A stretch of 32,000 bases of DNA from NCBI RefSeq assembly GCF_000009705.1, contig NC_003272.1, positions 3,030,001 to 3,062,000 on the forward strand, written 5' to 3'. Shown piece after piece: positions 3,652-31,746 of the stretch. The stretch's first letter is position 1. Each line of letters starts with the position of its first letter. A program made the position numbers and the translations under genes. The stretch is from Nostoc sp. PCC 7120 = FACHB-418 (GTDB lineage: Bacteria > Cyanobacteriota > Cyanobacteriia > Cyanobacteriales > Nostocaceae). The notes beneath the pieces are model-generated. The model was not told the origin of the DNA and searched no databases. It saw nothing but the letters and a program-made list of their open reading frames with translations.

Positions 3652-5013
3652 TTAACTACTTAGAACTGCTGACCATACCGCATGAGCTATTTCAGGTTTG
3701 TCAATAACACAGTGGGAACCCATAACAAAATTTGCCTGAGGATCGTAAATGTATTGACTACTTTCTAAGTTGTAAATTTTCTGTGGTTGGAAATTGTAAG
3801 AATATTGTAGGGGAAGCATATCAATATTGATAATATCTAAGTCTGTTCCCTGAATACCATAATTGCCAATTCCCCCAACATTAGGAAGCGGAGGTGAACT
3901 AACATCAGTATCTATATTTTGACCTGCAAATAATCCTAATTTCCCCGCTACAGGATAGGCTAGCTTGACAGCACTATCGTGTTTAGATTGGGTAGTAATA
4001 ATTGCACCGGCAACTTTCCTCTGAGCAATGATTGAGTGAAAGTAACCAACCAAATTATTCTTATAAGGAATCTTCGCACTAAAAGACCAGAGTGATAATG
4101 CACCTTGTACTAGAACCAGAGAATTTACAGGACGAACTAAAGCGTTATTTTGTTTATTCCCCGCGACTGTAGCCGAAGCAAATATACAACCAAAACTATG
4201 TCCCATAAGATGAAACCGTACTGTTTTTGCAGCTGTCTGTTGCAGTTTTTTTAAAAAATTAAAACCACTAGTTTCACCAATTCTACGGGCGCGGTCTTTC
4301 ATTTTCCAGAAAGAGACTAATCTTGGCAGCCCTAAAAATGAATCCCATGCTGATTTAACAGTATCAGTAAAACCAAAGCTGAAATCTTGAGTATCTTCTA
4401 ACAAAATATTTTGATAGACAGTTTCCGGATCTAAATTTAATAATTCAGTTTGACTCCAGCCGTCAGCATCTTCTTCATCACTAATCAAAGAGGCCTCTTT
4501 TAGCAATACCTCATAAGCTTGACTTACTTCTAATGGTAAAGTATCCGGCGCAGACTTATACTCTATTGCTGCTGTAAAAATCACTCGCAGTGCTTCTCTA
4601 GTAACTTCCGTATCAGCTATGCTTTGAGCATAATCATCAATCATTTGCTGTTGAGAATTATCTGTGATGTCATAAGAAACAACAGCTTTTAAGCCTTCAT
4701 GACTCCAAGGACTACTAGGCCAGTGTAAACCTATCCACAGAGGATGAAACTCTGGTCGTATTTGTTGGATTTTTTCAATATCAGTATGGCTGTCAGCCAT
4801 TGTTCTAATCCATTCTTTGTAGTGCTTTTGGGCGGAGGAAATATCACCCATCCAGCCATGACTAATTAAGAAGACATCTGTGATTGGCTGTGTAGATAAG
4901 ATGTCTATGACCTTTTGGCTGACTTGTTGAGTTCCATCACATTCCTTGCCATCAGCATCAAAAGCAATCAGATAGTAGTTCAGGGAAGTTCCGATTACTG
5001 TTTCAAGTGGCAT
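3652..5013 (-). CDS. alpha/beta-hydrolase (lipase/esterase-like) protein with a large insertion
   Basis: HG oxyanion-type motif (FLISHGW, res 52-53), nucleophile elbow GHSFG (Ser273), candidate acid SKHD (Asp346) and GSH (His434). Confidence 0.7.
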   Translation of the reverse strand: MPLETVIGTSLNYYLIAFDADGKECDGTQQVSQKVIDILSTQPITDVFLISHGWMGDISSAQKHYKEWIRTMADSHTDIEKIQQIRPEFHPLWIGLHWPSSPWSHEGLKAVVSYDITDNSQQQMIDDYAQSIADTEVTREALRVIFTAAIEYKSAPDTLPLEVSQAYEVLLKEASLISDEEDADGWSQTELLNLDPETVYQNILLEDTQDFSFGFTDTVKSAWDSFLGLPRLVSFWKMKDRARRIGETSGFNFLKKLQQTAAKTVRFHLMGHSFGCIFASATVAGNKQNNALVRPVNSLVLVQGALSLWSFSAKIPYKNNLVGYFHSIIAQRKVAGAIITTQSKHDSAVKLAYPVAGKLGLFAGQNIDTDVSSPPLPNVGGIGNYGIQGTDLDIINIDMLPLQYSYNFQPQKIYNLESSQYIYDPQANFVMGSHCVIDKPEIAHAVWSAVLSS

Positions 5014-5268
5014 ATATGTTATTTAACAGTGTGCAATGTAAATTTACTGAAACTGGAGTTTCAAGTGATTGTTAGAGCTTATAGTAGAAAATATGCGTGA
5101 ATCAATTAATACGCTGTTTTTAGTTATAAATGCTCAAATTATTTTTTAGGAATGCTGTAATATTTGTTAATATTATGTGAAAATACATGAAAAAGAAGCT
5201 ATAACGCTGTTAAATTACATATTCATGTGTATGGTTTGTTGACTGCTGATCCTTAGACTATGCTCAGA

Positions 5269-5296
5269 GTTAACTGTCAACCGTCAACTGTTAACA
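5269..5296. repeat. heptamer tandem array (GTYAACN x4), overall palindromic
   Basis: GTTAACT GTCAACC GTCAACT GTTAACA read directly from the sequence. Confidence 0.7.
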
Positions 5297-5383
5297 GCCA
5301 GTAGGAAAAGATATGCAAGTTAAAGCAAGGTTAGCCAACTTAATATAAGCGATCGCCTCTACTCAAGATTAATCAATTAAGAT

Positions 5384-5599
5384 TTATTCACTATAATAGT
5401 GGCGTGTTAATTTTCTAGTCATAAACAAAGCAATTAGCAATAATCCTTCTAAAGGAATCAAGGAAAATTTAAGGCTACAGCATAGCCAAAAGAACCCTAC
5501 TAGTATGGAAATAACTTGCCAGATTTGATTTGTAATTTTTAGACCAATAACTACAAAAAATATAGCTAGTCCTAGAGTAATAAATGAGGTGAATAGCAT
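5384..5599 (-). CDS. small hydrophobic protein, 71 aa (possible)
   Basis: The ORF is almost entirely hydrophobic segments. No SD is evident and no family is recognised. Confidence 0.35.
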   Translation of the reverse strand: MLFTSFITLGLAIFFVVIGLKITNQIWQVISILVGFFWLCCSLKFSLIPLEGLLLIALFMTRKLTRHYYSE

Positions 5600-5726
5600 A
5601 GCTAATACATTTGATCAGAATGATTGCGTGACTTGTTTATTCTGGAATTGCAGCAGAGTATTAAGAGTTCAATACCTTCCTGGTGGACAATTTTGGCTGT
5701 TTTGCTAATGACTACTGACCACTGAT

Positions 5727-23927: not shown

Positions 23928-24251
23928 GAGTTCTTTTTTCCTCCGTTGGTATATGTACTTATCACCTTTCTTAATTCTAGAAGATTCTTTTGGCTGTAGG
24001 GATTTCAAGTGTTAGCTGTAATACAATTGACAATATTTTTTTTCTTTTTTAAAGGAATGATAATTTAATTAAATTTTCTGTATATGTATAAAATAATGTA
24101 TTCAAAAAATTAAATATACTTGAAAAATCTGATTGTAGTGCGTATTTTTTTGAGCATTTACATCTAGACTACGTATAAAGTTTATCTTAGTATTGGCAAA
24201 ATCTAAGTATGTCCGGGGTTGATAATATCGACGGAGAAAAGATTTTGGTGG

Positions 24252-24298
24252 ACAATAGTCTTACTTGATGGATTGCCACAATCAAGTAAGACTATTGT
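24252..24298. other. perfect 18-bp inverted repeat (hairpin or operator), function unknown
   Basis: ACAATAGTCTTACTTGAT (24252-24269), loop GGATTGCCACA, then ATCAAGTAAGACTATTGT (24281-24298). Confidence 0.7.
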
Positions 24299-24429
24299 AT
24301 CAAAAATTACTAGCAACTCATGTATGCTAGTAATAAAATTGAGGACGGATATTAGTTAACGCTCTTCTATTACTCTCGTTAAATAAAAATTCACAATCCT
24401 TGATTGTTAAGGCTTTGATAAATTTATGA

Positions 24430-24540
24430 GTAGGTTGGGTTGAGGAACGTAGGCGCAGCCTTCTCATAGAGTAACCCAACACGAAAAATCCTTGGTTTTG
24501 TTGGGTTTCACTAAAGTTCAACCCAACCTACATTTTTTTC
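24430..24540 (+). repeat. nested-hairpin dispersed-repeat element (GTAGGTTGGGTTGA type) with T-run
   Basis: Outer 14-bp perfect stem 24430-24443 / 24518-24531. Inner 9-bp stem AACCCAACA (24473-24481) / TGTTGGGTT (24499-24507). ATTTTTTTCTTT follows. Confidence 0.6.
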
Positions 24541-25040
24541 TTTCATCAAAGTCATAAAAGAGTGTTAATACCTTCTTCTCAATTAGCAAATTACAAAAAG
24601 AAAAAAGTCTATTCTTAATTTAGAAAAAATTGATTTATTAGATTAGTTCTTGTTTTTATATCAAAAATACACAATACCTTAAATTCAATAATTATGAGGG
24701 TTATTAAATCTAAAAGATGCCCTAGGAAATTAGCGTTTGAGGTTCTTATCTTAATTGAAGATATATGTTATGGCGATTCCCAGTTAAGTGAAGTACAGAT
24801 AATATTTTTAAATGCAGAGGTACGCAGATATTTGTGCCTCAGCAGACTAGGAAACGCTATATGTTTGGCACTTTTTAATAAAGTTTCTTCATATTTTTCT
24901 GATTTGGAAACTCTTACACTCCAATACTTGTCTTCATATTGATACTTCACGATCGCCTACGGTGGAATGTAGCCTATAACCGTTTGAGCATTCCCATCCC
25001 ACTTAGTATATCCTTGTATATCCTTTACTACATTAAATAT

Positions 25041-26282
25041 ATGAAATTTAGTAATCTCAGAAATCCCTGTATCTTGATGATATTCAGCTTGAGTTTTTTA
25101 CAGGCTGCTGAGGCGCAAATTCCTGTAAGTCAAGCATCTCAACTATCTCAGGAAGTAGCAACATTGCGAAAACAGGGGACAAAGGGGTTGCAAGTGTTTC
25201 TTAAATCCCATAGCAGTAAACTTAATAACCCCCAAGTCAGAAAAGCTTTAGATGCACTCTGCCAGCAACGAGACTGTTATGCTTCTCGTCTTTACTGGTA
25301 CACCGACATAGAACAAGCTAAAGCAGCAGCTCAGGCTAGTGGTAAGCCGATTTTATCTTTACGGTTGTTAGGTAGGCTTGATCAGGATTTGAGTTGTGCT
25401 AATAGTCGATTCTTCCGTGTTGCATTGTATCCTAATGCAGAAATTTCTCATCTGTTGCAAGACCGTTTTATTTTACACTGGGAATCAGTGCGCCCTGTAC
25501 CAAAGGTGACAATCGACTTTGGCGATGGTCGGAAACTAGAACGAACGATTACAGGTAACAGCATTCATCATATATTAGATGGGTCTGGTCGTCCCATTGA
25601 TGCTATACCTGGACTTTACAGCCCTAAAGCTTTTTTGCAACAACTACAACAAGCTGAATTATTATCGCAAGAATATCGACGGATTCCTGTTGCCAATCGT
25701 GATGCTTTTTTAAAAAAATATCACAGCGATCGCCTGCAAGCAATCCAAACTCAATGGACAGCAGATTTATCTCAACTAGGAATTAATTCTTTTCCCCGGT
25801 TGACACAATCACCAAGTAATACAAGTCAGCCACCAACGGCAGAGTTAGCAGCTTCTTTGGCAGTTTCTAAGATGGCTGTAGAGCGTCCCTTACTCAGGAC
25901 TATTCAGCCTACTAACAATCGGGAGACGCTGGCAAAAATCACAGATGAGGAATCTTGGAACAAAATCGCTCAACTTTACATAGCTGATACTAAACTAGAT
26001 CAAAACAGCGTTGCTTTAATACGAGCTAAAACTAAAGCAGCTAATTTACAGAAATTGGTAAAAAACTTTGAGTCAGTAATGGCTTTAGATACAGTTAGAA
26101 ATGAATATATTCTACACAGCCAAATTCATCAATGGTTTGTGGAAGGTAATCAGACTAGTGATGTGGCAATACTCAATGACAAAGTATATGCTCAACTATT
26201 TCTAACTCCTAATTCTGACCCTTGGTTGGGACTTGCCCCTGATGGCATATACAATGCTATTGATAATGATGGAATGCGTTGA
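25041..26282 (+). CDS. secreted hypothetical protein with a thioredoxin-fold-like segment
   Basis: ATG at 25041 gives a Sec signal peptide (MKFSNLRNPCILMIFSLSFLQAAEA). WYTDIEQAKAAAQASGKPILSLRLLG...SCANSRFF resembles Thioredoxin_7/DUF255-type domains but has only one Cys. Confidence 0.6.
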   Translation: MKFSNLRNPCILMIFSLSFLQAAEAQIPVSQASQLSQEVATLRKQGTKGLQVFLKSHSSKLNNPQVRKALDALCQQRDCYASRLYWYTDIEQAKAAAQASGKPILSLRLLGRLDQDLSCANSRFFRVALYPNAEISHLLQDRFILHWESVRPVPKVTIDFGDGRKLERTITGNSIHHILDGSGRPIDAIPGLYSPKAFLQQLQQAELLSQEYRRIPVANRDAFLKKYHSDRLQAIQTQWTADLSQLGINSFPRLTQSPSNTSQPPTAELAASLAVSKMAVERPLLRTIQPTNNRETLAKITDEESWNKIAQLYIADTKLDQNSVALIRAKTKAANLQKLVKNFESVMALDTVRNEYILHSQIHQWFVEGNQTSDVAILNDKVYAQLFLTPNSDPWLGLAPDGIYNAIDNDGMR

Positions 26283-26449: not shown

Positions 26450-27007
26450 TCAAGAAGCTGTGGACTGCAATTTTTCAAGTCGAGCCAAAACTTCTGTACT
26501 GTGAACAGACGGGTTAACTTTGACAAAAGTTTCCCGGAGAATACCTTGTGGATCGATGATAAAGCTATGACGCATAGATACATAACCGATCCAAGAACCG
26601 TAGGCTTTACTAACTGCACCATCAGTATCAGCCAACAAAGGAAATTTTAGACCCTCGGAATCACAAAATTCAGCATGGGAGTCTATATCATCAGCACTCA
26701 CACCAATAATCTGGACATTTTTATCTAGATAGGTTGGTAAATCTTGCTGAAAACGACGAGCTTCAATCGTGCAACCCGATGTAAAGTCTTTGGGGTAAAA
26801 ATACAAGACTACCCATTTACCCCGCAAATCACCAAGAGAAAGTTTACCATCACCTGTATTGGTTGGTAACGTAAAATCGGGTGCAGGTTGGTTGATAGGG
26901 GGGAGTTTGCCCCCAAGTGCATAGGCAGTGGGGGGCAAGTTTAACCAGCTAATAACAGCAAAGCAGCTGACAAGCAAAATATGCAGAAAATTGCGTCGGG
27001 AAATCAT
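26450..27007 (-). CDS. peroxiredoxin, BCP/PrxQ type, with Tat-like signal peptide
   Basis: Active-site FYPKDFTSGCTIE. N-terminus MISRRNFLHILLVSCFAVISWL...AYA. ATG at 27007 is preferred over the TTG at 27037. Confidence 0.9.
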   Translation of the reverse strand: MISRRNFLHILLVSCFAVISWLNLPPTAYALGGKLPPINQPAPDFTLPTNTGDGKLSLGDLRGKWVVLYFYPKDFTSGCTIEARRFQQDLPTYLDKNVQIIGVSADDIDSHAEFCDSEGLKFPLLADTDGAVSKAYGSWIGYVSMRHSFIIDPQGILRETFVKVNPSVHSTEVLARLEKLQSTAS

Positions 27008-27050
27008 GATGTAAACAAGAATGATATCTTTACACAAGTTTACAATTTTT

Positions 27051-27100
27051 AGGGGATGGGGGTATAGATATTCCAGTTCACAATCTTTACACCCTTACAC
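27051..27100. repeat. TACACCC-type imperfect inverted repeat (dispersed family copy)
   Basis: AGGGGATGGGGGTA (27051-27064) faces TACACCCTTACAC (27088-27100). It overlaps the stop of the DUF3148-like gene. Confidence 0.5.
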
Positions 27101-27337
27101 ATCATGATTTTCTGGAAGCTTATCCACACTTTCGATGTATTGGCTATCGATGAGAAATGCACCTTTAGTAAAGCGGACACCCCAATATCCGCCAGGACGA
27201 CGGTCAAGTACAATGCCTTCTTCACCAAGTTGAATCACATCAGGGGGGCGTAGCATGGGCATGGGGTCTGCGGTTTTGATATAGGGCGGTAATGCCACTA
27301 CACGGACTTTACTACCAACGATAAATTCTTCAGACAT
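27095..27337 (-). CDS. DUF3148-like small conserved cyanobacterial/plastid-lineage protein (80 aa)
   Basis: VRVVALPPYIKTADPMPMLRPPDVIQLGEEGIVLDRRPGGYWGVRFTKGAFLIDSQYIE matches my recollection of DUF3148. ATG at 27337 is preferred over the TTG at 27415. Confidence 0.65.
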   Translation of the reverse strand: MSEEFIVGSKVRVVALPPYIKTADPMPMLRPPDVIQLGEEGIVLDRRPGGYWGVRFTKGAFLIDSQYIESVDKLPENHDV

Positions 27338-27626
27338 ATGATTTGTAAGAAACGAGAGTCCCAGTATCCAAGATACCGGGATTCTGAAGCCTTCAATATT
27401 CTGTTTTATCGGCAATAAATTGACATTACTTCAACTTAAAAATTTTCGCTACACTTTTAAGTTTTAAGTGCTATGTTATACTCCTACCGAGCAAGCATCA
27501 TCGAATATGTGCTGAACTCATTTGTTAAATTTACTTAACTTTATTCATCAAAAGTTAGTAAAATTTCCAACATCACTTAGAATTAAACCTGATCTGCACT
27601 TAAAAATCTTCATCTTTTATAAAATC

Positions 27627-28088
27627 ATGGAAATTACTGTCACTGAAGAATCGGTAAAGAAAAGTAAAATTCTGAAATCAGAAAAGGATGATTTCCAGTC
27701 CATAATTACGCATCTTGACTCTAACAACTTAGATGCTAACAGAATTATTGATGCTATTAAGTCAGCGATCGCTGAAGTTGTGGAACTGGAAATCACTACT
27801 TGGGTAGCAGAGCCATCAACGCAATTAGAAGAAGAACTAAACAACATCACCGAAATTGCTAAACCAGGAAACCGAATTTACACCAAAATTAATTTGATCA
27901 GTGGAGATATAGAAAACGAAGTAGGTAGTCAGTTCTTAGCTAGTGGCCCTTATGCCGAACTACTCAACTTTCATTTAGTTCAAGTGAAAGATAGTCGAGA
28001 AATCATGCAGAAGAATATAGAAAGCGTCCAGAAAATATATAAAATTCTGATGGAAATGTATAACTCTCGCAAAACGGTACAACTGTGA
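27627..28088 (+). CDS. hypothetical soluble protein A (153 aa), first gene of an uncharacterised operon
   Basis: ATG at 27627. Motifs LEITTWV and IY-x7-GDI-x20-H are shared with the next gene. No family recognised. Confidence 0.6.
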   Translation: MEITVTEESVKKSKILKSEKDDFQSIITHLDSNNLDANRIIDAIKSAIAEVVELEITTWVAEPSTQLEEELNNITEIAKPGNRIYTKINLISGDIENEVGSQFLASGPYAELLNFHLVQVKDSREIMQKNIESVQKIYKILMEMYNSRKTVQL

Positions 28089-28186
28089 AGGGCGTTGTAA
28101 GTTTGAGAGTCAATAATTAGCCTCTACTTCTACCTATAGGTATCACTTAATAACAAGATTTGCCAGAATAATAAAGGGTGATTGCT

Positions 28187-29098
28187 ATGCAAAATAAAAC
28201 TCAAGGAATAGACGCTCTTGAGAATTCAGATGCGCGTGATAGTAGATTTAATAATAAGAAATTAACAAATAGTAATCAAACAAGAGATACTCTTGAGATT
28301 AAATGTAGAAATTTATTAGATAAATTTGTATCATCTGTACAAGTATTAGTTGATGATATTACAGCCTTAGAAGTCAATACTATGGTTGTTTCTAATATTA
28401 CTGGGTCTAAATTTAGTGCATGGGAAGCTTATCAAGAAATTTATTCCATACATGATAAAGATTATTTTAAGGTAAAAGGAATCCCTGATGATAGCCCATT
28501 GCGAGAGCGTTATCAACGTCTATTTGCTCAACTTGAAAGAGAGTATTTTTATATAATTATCGAGGATGAAAAACTGCACAATGACAAAGTAGAACAATAT
28601 CACAAGCGCTTGGCATTGTTAAAAGAAATTAAACAAGGAAATATAGTTGAATCAGACCCTCGATATGTGGAATTAGCCCGCCCTATATTACCTTCTCCCT
28701 CTCCTGTTATTGATAGTGGAAATACAGACAATCGTAATGAAAATTGGCAACAAGAATGGCAACAAAATTGCCAAGAAATTCATACGCTTTTGATTAATGA
28801 TAAATTTGTGCGTACTCTGCGGAAGATTTCTGAATTGAAAGCCGCTCTTGATGGTGGAGATGTGACAAGTACCAAGACTGATACTATTTATGCTCAAACT
28901 GTTATGCAGTTAGACGGAGATATTATTACTCGATATCATAAAGACCTGTTCAGTTTACCAGAAGAAACAAAAAACTTAATCCTGCAAGTTCACAATGAAG
29001 GTGTAGTTGCAGGTGAAAAACAATGGCATGGAGTGCTAGATTTTATGATTAATTTGGTAAGAAATATGGCAAATTTAGCTGTAAATGGAAGACAATAA
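28187..29098 (+). CDS. hypothetical soluble protein B (303 aa), paralogue of A with a roughly 170-aa insertion
   Basis: ATG at 28187 with AAGGG SD 8 nt upstream. Motifs LEVNTMVV and IY-x8-GDI-x22-H. No family recognised. Confidence 0.65.
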   Translation: MQNKTQGIDALENSDARDSRFNNKKLTNSNQTRDTLEIKCRNLLDKFVSSVQVLVDDITALEVNTMVVSNITGSKFSAWEAYQEIYSIHDKDYFKVKGIPDDSPLRERYQRLFAQLEREYFYIIIEDEKLHNDKVEQYHKRLALLKEIKQGNIVESDPRYVELARPILPSPSPVIDSGNTDNRNENWQQEWQQNCQEIHTLLINDKFVRTLRKISELKAALDGGDVTSTKTDTIYAQTVMQLDGDIITRYHKDLFSLPEETKNLILQVHNEGVVAGEKQWHGVLDFMINLVRNMANLAVNGRQ

Positions 29099-30044
29099 AA
29101 TCCAAACAAATAATCCTGCTGATGCTATAATTGCGATTTCCTTGCAAATTCCCCAAGGCAATATTTTACAGCTTCATGTTGAGCAAAATGATTATAGTTT
29201 TTACCTGAATCAGCAAGTCGTAGAACAAATCCAAGAAGCTAGAAACAAGGGTATTTCTATTGAGATTCCACCAAAGCTTTTGCTACCTCTCTGGTACTGC
29301 ACTTGCTTTAGCCATAATTTTGTACCAACCAGGAAGGAAGAAGATGGGACTAGGATAACTGTCACCAAGTCTTATACTATTTTTTTAATAAATATTCTGC
29401 AAGCCTTTTGGAGTAAATCTCTACAAAAGAACACCTCTTTACAACCTGGTTTTACTTTCACCTCTTATTATCAGCAAGAGCAATTACAATCTGTTGATGC
29501 TCATAAACAAGAGCGCGTTTTACAAAGTGTTGTCTTATTTCATGGCGATATTTTGCACAAAATTAAGTGGGATTTGCTAAATAACAATTTTGATTGCCAG
29601 AAAATTGTTGCGGCTCACTATTGGCTCATAGAACAAATTTTAGGTGCTTTGAGGAGTAAGTTAAATCTGTTAGTTTGGGAAATAGCCGCGATTGTGCCTG
29701 CTGGTTTTTTGGCTTATAATTCACATTCAATTAATGGGTTAACATCAGTCATAACTTGGATAGGTGCGACTATCACAATAGCTTTTAGCCGCCCTATATT
29801 GGTAAAGATTTTACGAAGATTTACTACTCTTAAAAGCGAAAATTTGGATAATTGGGTTTGGGCTATCGTTTGTAGTGTTTCTGGTATTATTTCTCATGGC
29901 GTTGGGGAGTTGAGTAACATTTACTTATTGTTGTTGCTAATTCTTTCGTGGTTGACACCAGAAATTGTCAAACGTACTTTACGTTATATCTGGCCACTAC
30001 TAGGTAAATTCATGATACGCTCACTCTCCCGCTTACCTTTTTAA
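29085..30044 (+). CDS. hypothetical membrane protein C (319 aa; soluble N-domain plus about 4 TM helices)
   Basis: The ATG overlaps the end of gene B by 14 nt. The N-domain carries HGDI-x21-H. The C-terminal half has four hydrophobic segments. Confidence 0.65.
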   Translation: MEDNKIQTNNPADAIIAISLQIPQGNILQLHVEQNDYSFYLNQQVVEQIQEARNKGISIEIPPKLLLPLWYCTCFSHNFVPTRKEEDGTRITVTKSYTIFLINILQAFWSKSLQKNTSLQPGFTFTSYYQQEQLQSVDAHKQERVLQSVVLFHGDILHKIKWDLLNNNFDCQKIVAAHYWLIEQILGALRSKLNLLVWEIAAIVPAGFLAYNSHSINGLTSVITWIGATITIAFSRPILVKILRRFTTLKSENLDNWVWAIVCSVSGIISHGVGELSNIYLLLLLILSWLTPEIVKRTLRYIWPLLGKFMIRSLSRLPF

Positions 30045-31350: not shown

Positions 31351-31746
31351 GTGAACCGTTTCCAAAAGCTATCCTCAATCGTGTTCCTGTTATTAGCTTT
31401 CATCTATCCGCCTACATTAGTTGAAGCTAAAGAGAATACTCTCAATAATGCTTTGAATGAGCAAACTATTGAAGCAGAAACAAACTTAGTCGAAGGTGAA
31501 CACAAAGAAACATTAATAGCTCACCGACAATATAGACGGCGTTATCACGGAAGAAGACGGGCTAGACGGCATTACCACAGACGGCGCTATCATAATCGGC
31601 ATTATTACAGGCATTACTATCGTAATGGACGTTATCGTGGTCGGCATTATCGTAGAGCAAATTATCGCGGTCAATACTATCGTCGTGGAGGATGGGAACT
31701 TGTTCGTGACCGTCATGGACGATTAATGTATGATTGGCAGCGTTAA
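31351..31746 (+). CDS. secreted Arg/Tyr/His-rich repetitive protein (131 aa)
   Basis: GTG start with AGGAAAAG upstream. Sec-type signal peptide (LSSIVFLLLAFIYPPTLVEA), an acidic spacer, then about 57 residues that are roughly 77% R/Y/H. Confidence 0.55.
   Translation: MNRFQKLSSIVFLLLAFIYPPTLVEAKENTLNNALNEQTIEAETNLVEGEHKETLIAHRQYRRRYHGRRRARRHYHRRRYHNRHYYRHYYRNGRYRGRHYRRANYRGQYYRRGGWELVRDRHGRLMYDWQR

Follow-up and report, generated by a model that had tools for sequence, protein, structure and literature searches.

Three open reading frames (ORFs), designated A, B and C, are located at positions 27627-30044 of a 32,000-nucleotide stretch of Nostoc DNA (contig NC_003272.1, positions 3,030,001 to 3,062,000 of the forward strand), which is called the window below and whose own numbering is used throughout. 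The ORFs lie on the same strand and encode two acidic soluble proteins followed by a basic membrane protein (Table 1). Calculated from the ORF coordinates, the gap between A and B is 98 nt, and B and C overlap by 14 nt, the ATG of C being located within the 3' end of B. The start codons were supported by full-length homologues (P0001, 153 aa and 99% identical to A; P0121 for B; P0241, 319 aa and 100% identical to C). An initial annotation, made from the sequence alone, had described three tightly packed same-strand ORFs with this gap and overlap, and both the coordinates and the full-length homologues agree with that description. The GC content of the A-B-C region is ordinary for the window. 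A promoter and terminator scan, otherwise uninformative, located no terminator-like site on the + strand between 27000 and 30400, and an Rfam scan of the A-B-C region and of distant loci returned no element.

Table 1. Features of the A-B-C region and its upstream neighbours (window coordinates)
Feature	Position	Strand	Description
Gene A	27627-28088	+	ORF, 153 aa; acidic soluble protein, pI 4.85, net charge about -8
Gene B	28187-29098	+	ORF, 303 aa; acidic soluble protein, pI 5.5
Gene C	29085-30044	+	ORF, 319 aa; basic membrane protein, pI 8.95
A residues 51-60 (VVELEITTWV)	27777-27806	+	End of helix 1 and strand 1; N-terminal motif common to B
A residues 83-116 (RIYTKINLISGDIENEVGSQF...FH)	27873-27974	+	Strand, GD turn, strand, loop, invariant His opening the long helix
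B residues 58-68 (ITALEVNTMVV)	28358-28390	+	Counterpart of the strand-1 motif of A
B residues 234-269 (IYAQTVMQLDGDIITRY...QVH)	28886-28993	+	Shared-module strand, GD turn, strand, then His
C residues 144-178 (RVLQSVVLFHGDILHKIK...AAH)	29514-29618	+	Strand-GD-strand...His half-module; helix continues into the first transmembrane helix
C residues 193-292	29661-29960	+	Transmembrane region (Kyte-Doolittle)
PrxQ/AhpC-TSA peroxiredoxin	26450-27037	-	N-terminal hydrophobic stretch; divergent upstream neighbour
CRR42-like protein	27095-27415	-	PF11347, E = 1.7e-35; divergent upstream neighbour

Pfam-A, NCBIfam and PADLOC scans of the three proteins at E up to 10 gave nothing near any curated cut-off, PDB sequence profile searches with A, B and C returned noise only, and Foldseek produced no match at E < 0.1 for the A model in either PDB or BFVD. 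No Pfam domain was precomputed for the 306 homologues retrieved, and homologues are named 'hypothetical protein'. Stray homologue labels ('J domain-containing', 'ClpS', 'endonuclease III' and 'DnaD') had no domain support and were rejected. The J-domain label is carried by the cluster of the B homologue P0202, which has no precomputed Pfam domain, aligns with B over its full length and lacks an HPD motif; it is likely a mis-annotation or derived from another member of the cluster. Literature searches by locus tag, accession and descriptive terms found nothing relevant to A, B or C. The initial annotation had been unable to assign any of the three proteins to a known family, and the Pfam, NCBIfam, PADLOC and PDB sequence searches together with Foldseek, none of which gave a significant match, lead to the same result. 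By every test made, A, B and C fall outside known families; judged from their sequences they would be new in kind, and their function may nevertheless be ordinary.

The module common to A, B and C

A common signature was found in the three window proteins and in their families, consisting of a hydrophobic strand, a G-[DE]-[IV] turn, a second strand, about 20 residues, and an invariant His that opens an amphipathic helix. The GDI triplet and the His are located at residues 93-95 and 116 in A (x20), 244-246 and 269 in B (x22), and 154-156 and 178 in C (x21); these positions and the conserved columns bear out the GDI-x20/x22/x21-H motifs of the initial annotation. Within the alignment of each family the GDI and His columns are invariant or near-invariant, the His being conserved in 100/100/98% of the A/B/C sequences, the turn Gly in 95/100/100% and the turn Asp in 58/95/92%. 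In the A family (191 sequences), L54, T58 and V60 are conserved at 94-100%, G93 at 95%, F103 at 97% and H116 at 100%. The conserved columns of B include L61, E62, N64, Q237, T238, G244 and H269 (100%) and D245 (95%), and those of C include G154 (100%), D155 (92%), H178 (98%) and W180 (100%). In each family conservation is highest at the shared motif positions, and the hydrophobic patterns of the module agree among the three proteins. The helix that follows the His is amphipathic in all three families (3.5-3.6-residue periodicity) and in C runs directly into the first transmembrane helix (TM1).

Pairwise BLASTP comparisons among A, B and C were not significant. Shallow hhalign profiles, built from Nostocaceae only (effective number of sequences, Neff, of about 2), gave P = 0.05-0.09, with the best local alignment falling exactly on the GDI and His motifs. 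Diverse profiles of 191 (A), 56 (B) and 64 (C) non-redundant sequences were then used, in which distant relatives were contributed by an exhaustive hidden Markov model (HMM) search and by metagenome loci. Full-length comparison of these profiles gave P = 0.0017 for A-B, 0.0027 for A-C and 0.0002 for B-C. When parts of the proteins were compared, the N-terminal half of A matched B 45-70 (P = 0.0023), the C-terminal half of A matched B 242-296 (P = 0.0009) and C 146-178 (P = 0.0011), the N-terminal part of B matched the A profile (P = 0.00019), and the C-terminal part of B matched C 144-184 (P = 3.6e-5, probability 71%). The similarity is significant by HMM-HMM comparison with diverse profiles and was missed by BLASTP and by the shallow profiles. 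As a decoy control, 120 column shuffles were generated for each of four comparisons (A N-half/B, A C-half/B, A C-half/C and B C-part/C). The observed scores of 20.7, 26.2, 26.1 and 36.4 lie 4-10 standard deviations (SD) above the decoys, which had means of 10-13 and an SD of about 2.5, and were reached by 1, 0, 0 and 0 of the 120 shuffles, respectively. In addition, at the divergent locus L135 a plain BLASTP comparison of the local B with the local C gave E = 2e-4, centred on the motif YAQTVMQLDGDIILRIN...LMRLH versus AARTLFQLDGDMLVKID...IIEAH, and an alignment of 85 columns (P = 2.5e-4) connects the C protein of this locus with the C family of the Nostocaceae.

These comparisons also bear on the alternative that the three genes are unrelated neighbours whose common motif is a coincidence of short, low-information segments. 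The non-significant BLASTP results, the marginal P-values of the shallow profiles and a best hhalign probability of 71%, rather than one above 95%, would be expected of such a coincidence, but the significance grows with profile diversity, two independent halves of A match co-linear places in B, and the shuffled controls reached the observed scores once in the four sets of trials. The B-C match by BLASTP in a distant clade is independent of these profiles, the motif positions coincide with the best-conserved columns of each family, and the adjacency of the genes is kept across the phylum. Coincidence is accordingly regarded as very improbable. As judged from the profiles, the paralogy of A, B and C is real but ancient and very remote; B contains a counterpart of the whole of A, and C a counterpart of half of the module.

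The initial annotation had regarded A and B as paralogues matching at both ends, with B equivalent to A plus an insertion of about 170 aa. Both parts of this proposal were sustained, the former by co-linear hhalign hits whose scores were reached by 1/120 and 0/120 shuffles, the latter by an extra segment of about 165 aa in B that maps exactly to the variable, low-confidence loop 60-82 of A in the profile alignments and in the A model. Because A and B match at both ends, B is read as A with a helical insert, and on the alignments it is an A-type module split by about 165 aa, in a manner that fits insertion into a surface loop. The insert spans approximately residues 69-231, is largely helical and contains the invariant motifs QLEREYFY, PILPxPxP (166-173) and LRKxxELKAALD. 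For C, which was also said to repeat the core, the claim holds for the C-terminal GDI...His half (P = 0.0011 against A and 3.6e-5 against B) and fails for the N-terminal motif (ELEITTWV in A, ALEVNTMVV in B), which is undetectable in C (hhalign P = 0.3-0.5) and confined to A and B.

A structural model of A was generated with AlphaFold2 (AF2) from 121 sequences. The mean predicted local distance difference test (pLDDT) score was 72, and the core, residues 80-140, scored 85-92. The model is a small domain of α-β-β-β-α topology. Helix 37-49 and strand 53-59 (ELEITTW) are followed by loop 60-82, which is variable and of low confidence; the G-D turn then connects strand 83-89 (RIYTKIN) to strand 95-99, and a further loop leads to a long helix (111-151) whose first residues lie just ahead of His116. 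Gene A is the minimal form of the shared module. The AF2 model of B, made from 32 sequences, had a pLDDT of 53; its insert helices scored 63-77, and the motif segments scored below 50 and were drawn as low-confidence helices.

The topology of the A model raises the alternative that A is a YbaB/EbfC-like nucleoid-associated protein and that the complex tethers DNA to the membrane. Four YbaB structures (1pug, 1j8b, 3f42 and 1ybx), which have the α-β-β-β-α topology in common with A, are among the top 22 Foldseek PDB matches, but the Foldseek scores are non-significant (best E = 0.26, probability 0.25; TM-score 0.34-0.43 when normalised by the short target), and SRP9/14 and double-stranded RNA-binding domains with the same generic topology occur in the same list. 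Alignment of the A, B and C profiles with five PDB YbaB sequences gave hhalign P = 0.2-0.5, no match of A to Pfam YbaB_DNA_bd was found at E up to 10, and A and B are both acidic (Table 1), where a basic DNA-binding surface would be expected. Membership of A in the YbaB/EbfC family (PF02575) was rejected on the profile test and is close to refuted, and the DNA-tethering alternative is extremely improbable.

Distribution, gene order and neighbouring genes

Homologous loci were identified by a pattern scan in which each GTDB species was represented by one genome, and the best 80 loci (all Nostocaceae-like) of 186 B-encoding genomes were examined for gene order. A total of 122 homologues of A, 465 of B and 66 of C were obtained; B, the most conserved of the three proteins, is encoded in at least 186 species-level genomes. 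The closest named strains in the clusters inspected are Nostoc sp. PCC 7524 (Nos7524_3328-3330) and NIES-3756. The order A-B-C on the same strand was found in 73/80 Nostocaceae loci, with A cut by the contig end in one more, and B-C was present in all 80, at a distance of no more than 2 nt in each. This spacing, together with the 14-nt overlap in the window, fits translational coupling of B and C. Gene order, B-C distance and family searches agree in pointing to a real, tightly coupled and uncharacterised three-gene unit. The co-occurrence and adjacency that the initial annotation had proposed to check hold for B-C throughout and for A-B-C in the 73 loci, and break down for A in six. The genomes that lack A at the locus are those of N. 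linckia z4, N. paludosum, ATCC 43529, C117, ChiSLP01 and CreGUA01, in which B-C is intact and about 260-400 nt separate the divergent upstream gene from B.

With a threshold of E up to 1e-3, an exhaustive HMM search with the A profile returned 628 clusters defined at 50% identity. The system is not limited to Nostocaceae, a point missed by the initial annotation: the A domain occurs in at least 600 clusters across cyanobacterial orders. Named members belong to Coleofasciculus, Trichocoleus/Funiculus, Roseofilum, Lyngbya, Spirulina, Lusitaniella, Leptolyngbyaceae, Elainellaceae, Xenococcaceae and 'Synechococcales' metagenome-assembled genomes (MAGs), and every named member of the A/B/C system is cyanobacterial. 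The protein P0347 (1724 aa, E = 2.9e-34 against the A profile) was rejected as a false positive, as it is of eukaryotic type and contains 11 Mos1-transposase HTH_48 repeats. Its score arises purely from a repeated ELEVTTWF segment; repeats can inflate HMM E-values.

Most of the 628 clusters are 300-1700 aa long, with the A domain at approximately residues 8-120 followed by an acidic tail. Proteins of this kind are encoded by a fourth gene, designated A′, in an operon of the form A (about 145 aa)-A′ (360-1000 aa)-B-C (about 245 aa), which was found in a Coleofasciculaceae MAG and, where the contigs are long enough, in 13/55 metagenome loci (A-A′-B-C loci: L081, L085, L088, L089, L094-L098, L105, L108, L125 and L127). 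No Pfam match was obtained for any of the four L081 genes (A, A′, B and C) or for eight genuine long A′ proteins. The A′ tail contains 28% Asp+Glu, 10% Pro and 10% Ser, rarely includes a transmembrane segment, and often ends in ...KRVPPPPPPPSRFPNQNN. Scattered Trp-acidic repeats such as EEWEQEEWEE and EDWDSFDIEE were observed in the A′ proteins (P0333-P0477; L081 1420-3012). The terminal sequence is a conserved polyproline tag that closes many A′ proteins, and an invariant proline motif, PILPxPxP, is also present in B; the tag and this motif could be docking sites for a partner. The shorter C protein of the non-Nostocaceae loci has a single transmembrane hairpin. Because A-A′-B-C with a one-hairpin C is found elsewhere, the four-gene operon looks ancestral, and the Nostocaceae look to have a derived three-gene form in which the transmembrane hairpin of C is duplicated.

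A very divergent A-B-C clade was observed on seven metagenome contigs (L129-L135), in which B is 23-29% identical to the Coleofasciculaceae query. In the A proteins of this clade the Gly-Asp turn is lost (LLQADRKNKIH) and the FH is kept; C is just 209-218 aa long, and a nadC-like gene is among the neighbours. The Rfam scan detected neither rRNA nor any other element on these contigs.

Downstream of the operon, a convergent acetate kinase gene (ackA) follows C in 60/80 Nostocaceae loci. Upstream, most Nostoc loci contain ftsH, a class-IV-aminotransferase-like gene, a GNAT gene and a gene for a 261-aa protein without a Pfam match. In 71/80 loci a protein of 261-264 aa, with an N-terminal transmembrane or signal segment and no Pfam match (e.g. 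4866-5651, - strand, in L057), is encoded divergently from the operon; it does not adjoin the operon in the window. The divergent neighbours in the window are instead the CRR42-like and PrxQ genes (Table 1), and since this neighbourhood recurs in 1/80 loci, that of the closest relative only, there is a rearrangement upstream of the operon in this window. A Maf gene is located upstream in 10/17 non-Nostocaceae loci, which are possibly close relatives of one another. The neighbouring genes are weak hints to function.

At its 3′ end, C (stop at 30044, +) overlaps ackA (stop at 30033, -) by 12 nt (30033-30044), with no terminator-like site predicted between the two genes; elsewhere they are separated by about 80 nt, and the overlap is specific to this genome. 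Beyond ackA, an ORF of 131 aa (31351-31746, +) has a hydrophobic, signal-like N-terminal stretch followed by an extreme Arg/Tyr/His-rich region (RRYHGRRRARRHYHRRRYHNRHYYRHYYRNGRYRGRHYRR) and no Pfam match, and a homologue is present beyond ackA in 17/80 Nostocaceae loci. The kilobase with the lowest GC content in the window (24001-25000, GC 0.307) contains the start of an ORF of 447 aa (24939-26282, +), which has a hydrophobic, signal-like N-terminal segment and, at E up to 1e-3, no Pfam match.

The chromosomal setting bears on the suggestion, made in the initial annotation, of a conflict-type system. In this alternative the operon would be an anti-phage, toxin-antitoxin or other conflict system with the small proteins and the membrane protein as effector and regulator, in keeping with the generic layout of small soluble proteins beside a membrane protein and with a sub-threshold PADLOC match of B to PDC-M04B (E = 0.007-0.014, 14 bits, about 65 aa). 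No significant match was found in PADLOC-DB 2.0, however, A and C giving none at all, and tblastn searches with B of 50,697 phage and 72,556 plasmid records detected no homologue. The context is stable and chromosomal, with ackA adjoining in 60/80 loci and housekeeping genes upstream; each inspected locus has one copy, although in one of them two ORFs make up C; the deep conservation across orders looks vertical; and the GC content is not atypical for the window. A conflict system is therefore unlikely on the basis of its housekeeping flanks and the lack of phage and plasmid homologues, and with the PADLOC result and the vertical-looking inheritance this reading is disfavoured to the point of being barely credible.

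A candidate membrane-anchored complex

No hydrophobic or transmembrane segment was found in A or B. In C, the segments 193-211, 222-240 and 268-286 exceed the Kyte-Doolittle threshold and a weaker one is located at about 255-270, in agreement with the four hydrophobic helices after a soluble N-domain described in the initial annotation. An N-domain of about 190 aa is followed by approximately four transmembrane helices arranged as two hairpins, with a basic amphipathic stretch after each. The K/R-rich stretches are located ahead of TM1, between TM2 and TM3 and at the C-terminus. From this charge pattern and the positive-inside rule we infer an N-in, C-in topology, in which the first 190 or so residues would be cytoplasmic. 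The extracytoplasmic loops are tiny (about 8-11 residues), and the His of the module is about 14 residues ahead of TM1.

The preferred explanation is that A, B and C form a single membrane-anchored complex, specific to cyanobacteria, whose subunits are ancient paralogues. Each of them would contribute a β-strand, a Gly-Asp turn, a second β-strand and the invariant His opening a long amphipathic helix, with A and B additionally sharing the preceding helix and strand. C would act as the membrane anchor, its module facing the cytoplasm and the module helix continuing into TM1. B would be the conserved core soluble partner, carrying a helical insert domain and made in step with C by translational coupling, and A a minimal accessory subunit that can be lost in some lineages. 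A′ would represent a fourth paralogue, present in most non-Nostocaceae cyanobacteria, that adds a very long acidic disordered tail. Like modules may pair through sheet-to-sheet contacts, helix bundling or both, and a hetero-oligomer would thereby assemble on the cytoplasmic side of the membrane. Because no Pfam, NCBIfam, PADLOC or PDB match was obtained, the complex is proposed to be a structural or organising scaffold, with no enzymatic, signalling or defence role. The genes with their conservation and order, the B-C coupling, the common module, the fold of A and the lack of any known family are taken as shown. We infer the association, the topology and the role, and a hetero-oligomer with paired modules, tethered by C and serving as a scaffold, is put forward tentatively, as possible but somewhat short of probable.

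Several observations weigh against this explanation. The link among the A, B and C proteins consists of conserved adjacency and paralogy and is circumstantial. A is missing from the locus in 6/80 cases (L030, L047, L050, L056, L057 and L079) and is therefore not an obligate subunit. Because the AF2 model of B is poor, with its motifs drawn as low-confidence helices, the A-type fold attributed to B is taken from sequence profiles. No entry of the PCC 7120 / ATCC 29413 group was seen among the ten homologue clusters inspected, which does not prove absence; the operon would accordingly not be universally required. Finally, the invariant His and the conserved Asp could equally mark a catalytic or metal site, in which case a pure scaffold would be wrong.

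The last of these points leads to the main alternative, in which the His acts as a ligand together with the Asp/Glu of the turn. Every paralogous subunit would donate one His to a metal or cofactor site that they have in common, and the complex would be a metal or cofactor handling or assembly factor for membrane complexes, for example photosynthetic or respiratory ones. The conservation of the His (98-100% in A/B/C) and of the Asp in B and C (92-95%) speaks for such a site, as do the cyanobacterial origin of every named member, the position of the His of C near the membrane surface, and the CRR42-like protein and peroxiredoxin that neighbour the operon in the window. The Asp, however, is conserved in just 58% of A sequences and the GD is lost from A in the divergent clade, the CRR42/PrxQ neighbourhood is restricted to 1/80 loci, and no Cys/His cluster, known metal motif or match to a known assembly factor was found. 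A metal or cofactor site is considered unlikely.

The initial annotation had also suggested a sensor/effector role. In such a device C would sense a membrane or envelope cue and A and B would be cytoplasmic transducers that swap partners through the module. The layout of a membrane protein with soluble paralogues was confirmed, and the loss of A and gain of A′ suggest modular partners. Against this, no kinase, receiver, helix-turn-helix (HTH), GGDEF, STAS or other input or output domain was found in any member, the extracytoplasmic loops of C are about 8-11 residues long, and no conserved regulator is located nearby. As none of the members has an output domain, the suggestion is not upheld, and a signal relay is regarded as quite improbable.

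The scaffold explanation can be extended to a cyanobacteria-wide membrane-organising machine, in which A, A′, B and C form a stalk through the Gly...His module that is anchored by the transmembrane hairpins of C. In most lineages A′ would add a polyanionic brush of 360-1000 residues that ends in a polyproline tag, and the machine might set the spacing, curvature or attachment of thylakoid or cytoplasmic membranes, or capture cations or partners there. This extension is rather unlikely; if true, both the fold family and this type of bacterial membrane scaffold would be new.

It has become uncommon for a family to comprise hundreds of members and yet have no neighbour in Pfam, NCBIfam, the PDB or structure searches, and here this applies to a whole operon. 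The organisation of internal membranes and the cell architecture of cyanobacteria rest on a handful of known factors, to which a conserved complex, anchored in the membrane and bearing a giant arm that is acidic and disordered, would, if true, add a new and testable player. Handles are offered by the invariant His, the defined module, the constant core pair B-C, and the natural variants that lack A or contain A′. Even if the role is mundane, the remote paralogy would define a new domain family for the databases.

Comparison with known systems

YbaB binds DNA through basic helices and works as a homo-oligomer through its α-β-β-β-α fold. Like A, the YbaB/EbfC proteins (PF02575; 1pug, 1j8b, 3f42, 1ybx and 5yrx) consist of a small α-β-β-β-α domain with a long C-terminal helix, and their structures head the Foldseek list for the A model, without reaching significance. 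Unlike YbaB, A is strongly acidic. In B an insert of 165 aa interrupts the module, in C a membrane anchor is fused to it, and there is no sequence or profile relationship to YbaB; the conserved Gly...His signature of A/B/C is not a feature of the five aligned PDB YbaB sequences.

The CURT1/CurT proteins (CAAD domain) are thylakoid-shaping, curvature-inducing and oligomerising membrane proteins. C resembles them in its short transmembrane hairpins with basic amphipathic helices, its near lack of extramembrane loops and its restriction to cyanobacteria. It differs in having a cytoplasmic domain of about 190 aa that bears the shared module and in being encoded together with soluble paralogues, and with E up to 10 C matched no Pfam family at all, CAAD included. 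The likeness would be one of functional analogy only. Membrane remodelling, also raised in the initial annotation, is a possible role.

In operon-encoded hetero-oligomers, gene order and translational coupling track the assembly of the complex. The A/B/C complex differs from operon-encoded paralogous hetero-oligomers in being hypothetical, and resembles them in that gene order is kept, B and C overlap or abut in 80/80 loci, and one module is common to the subunits.

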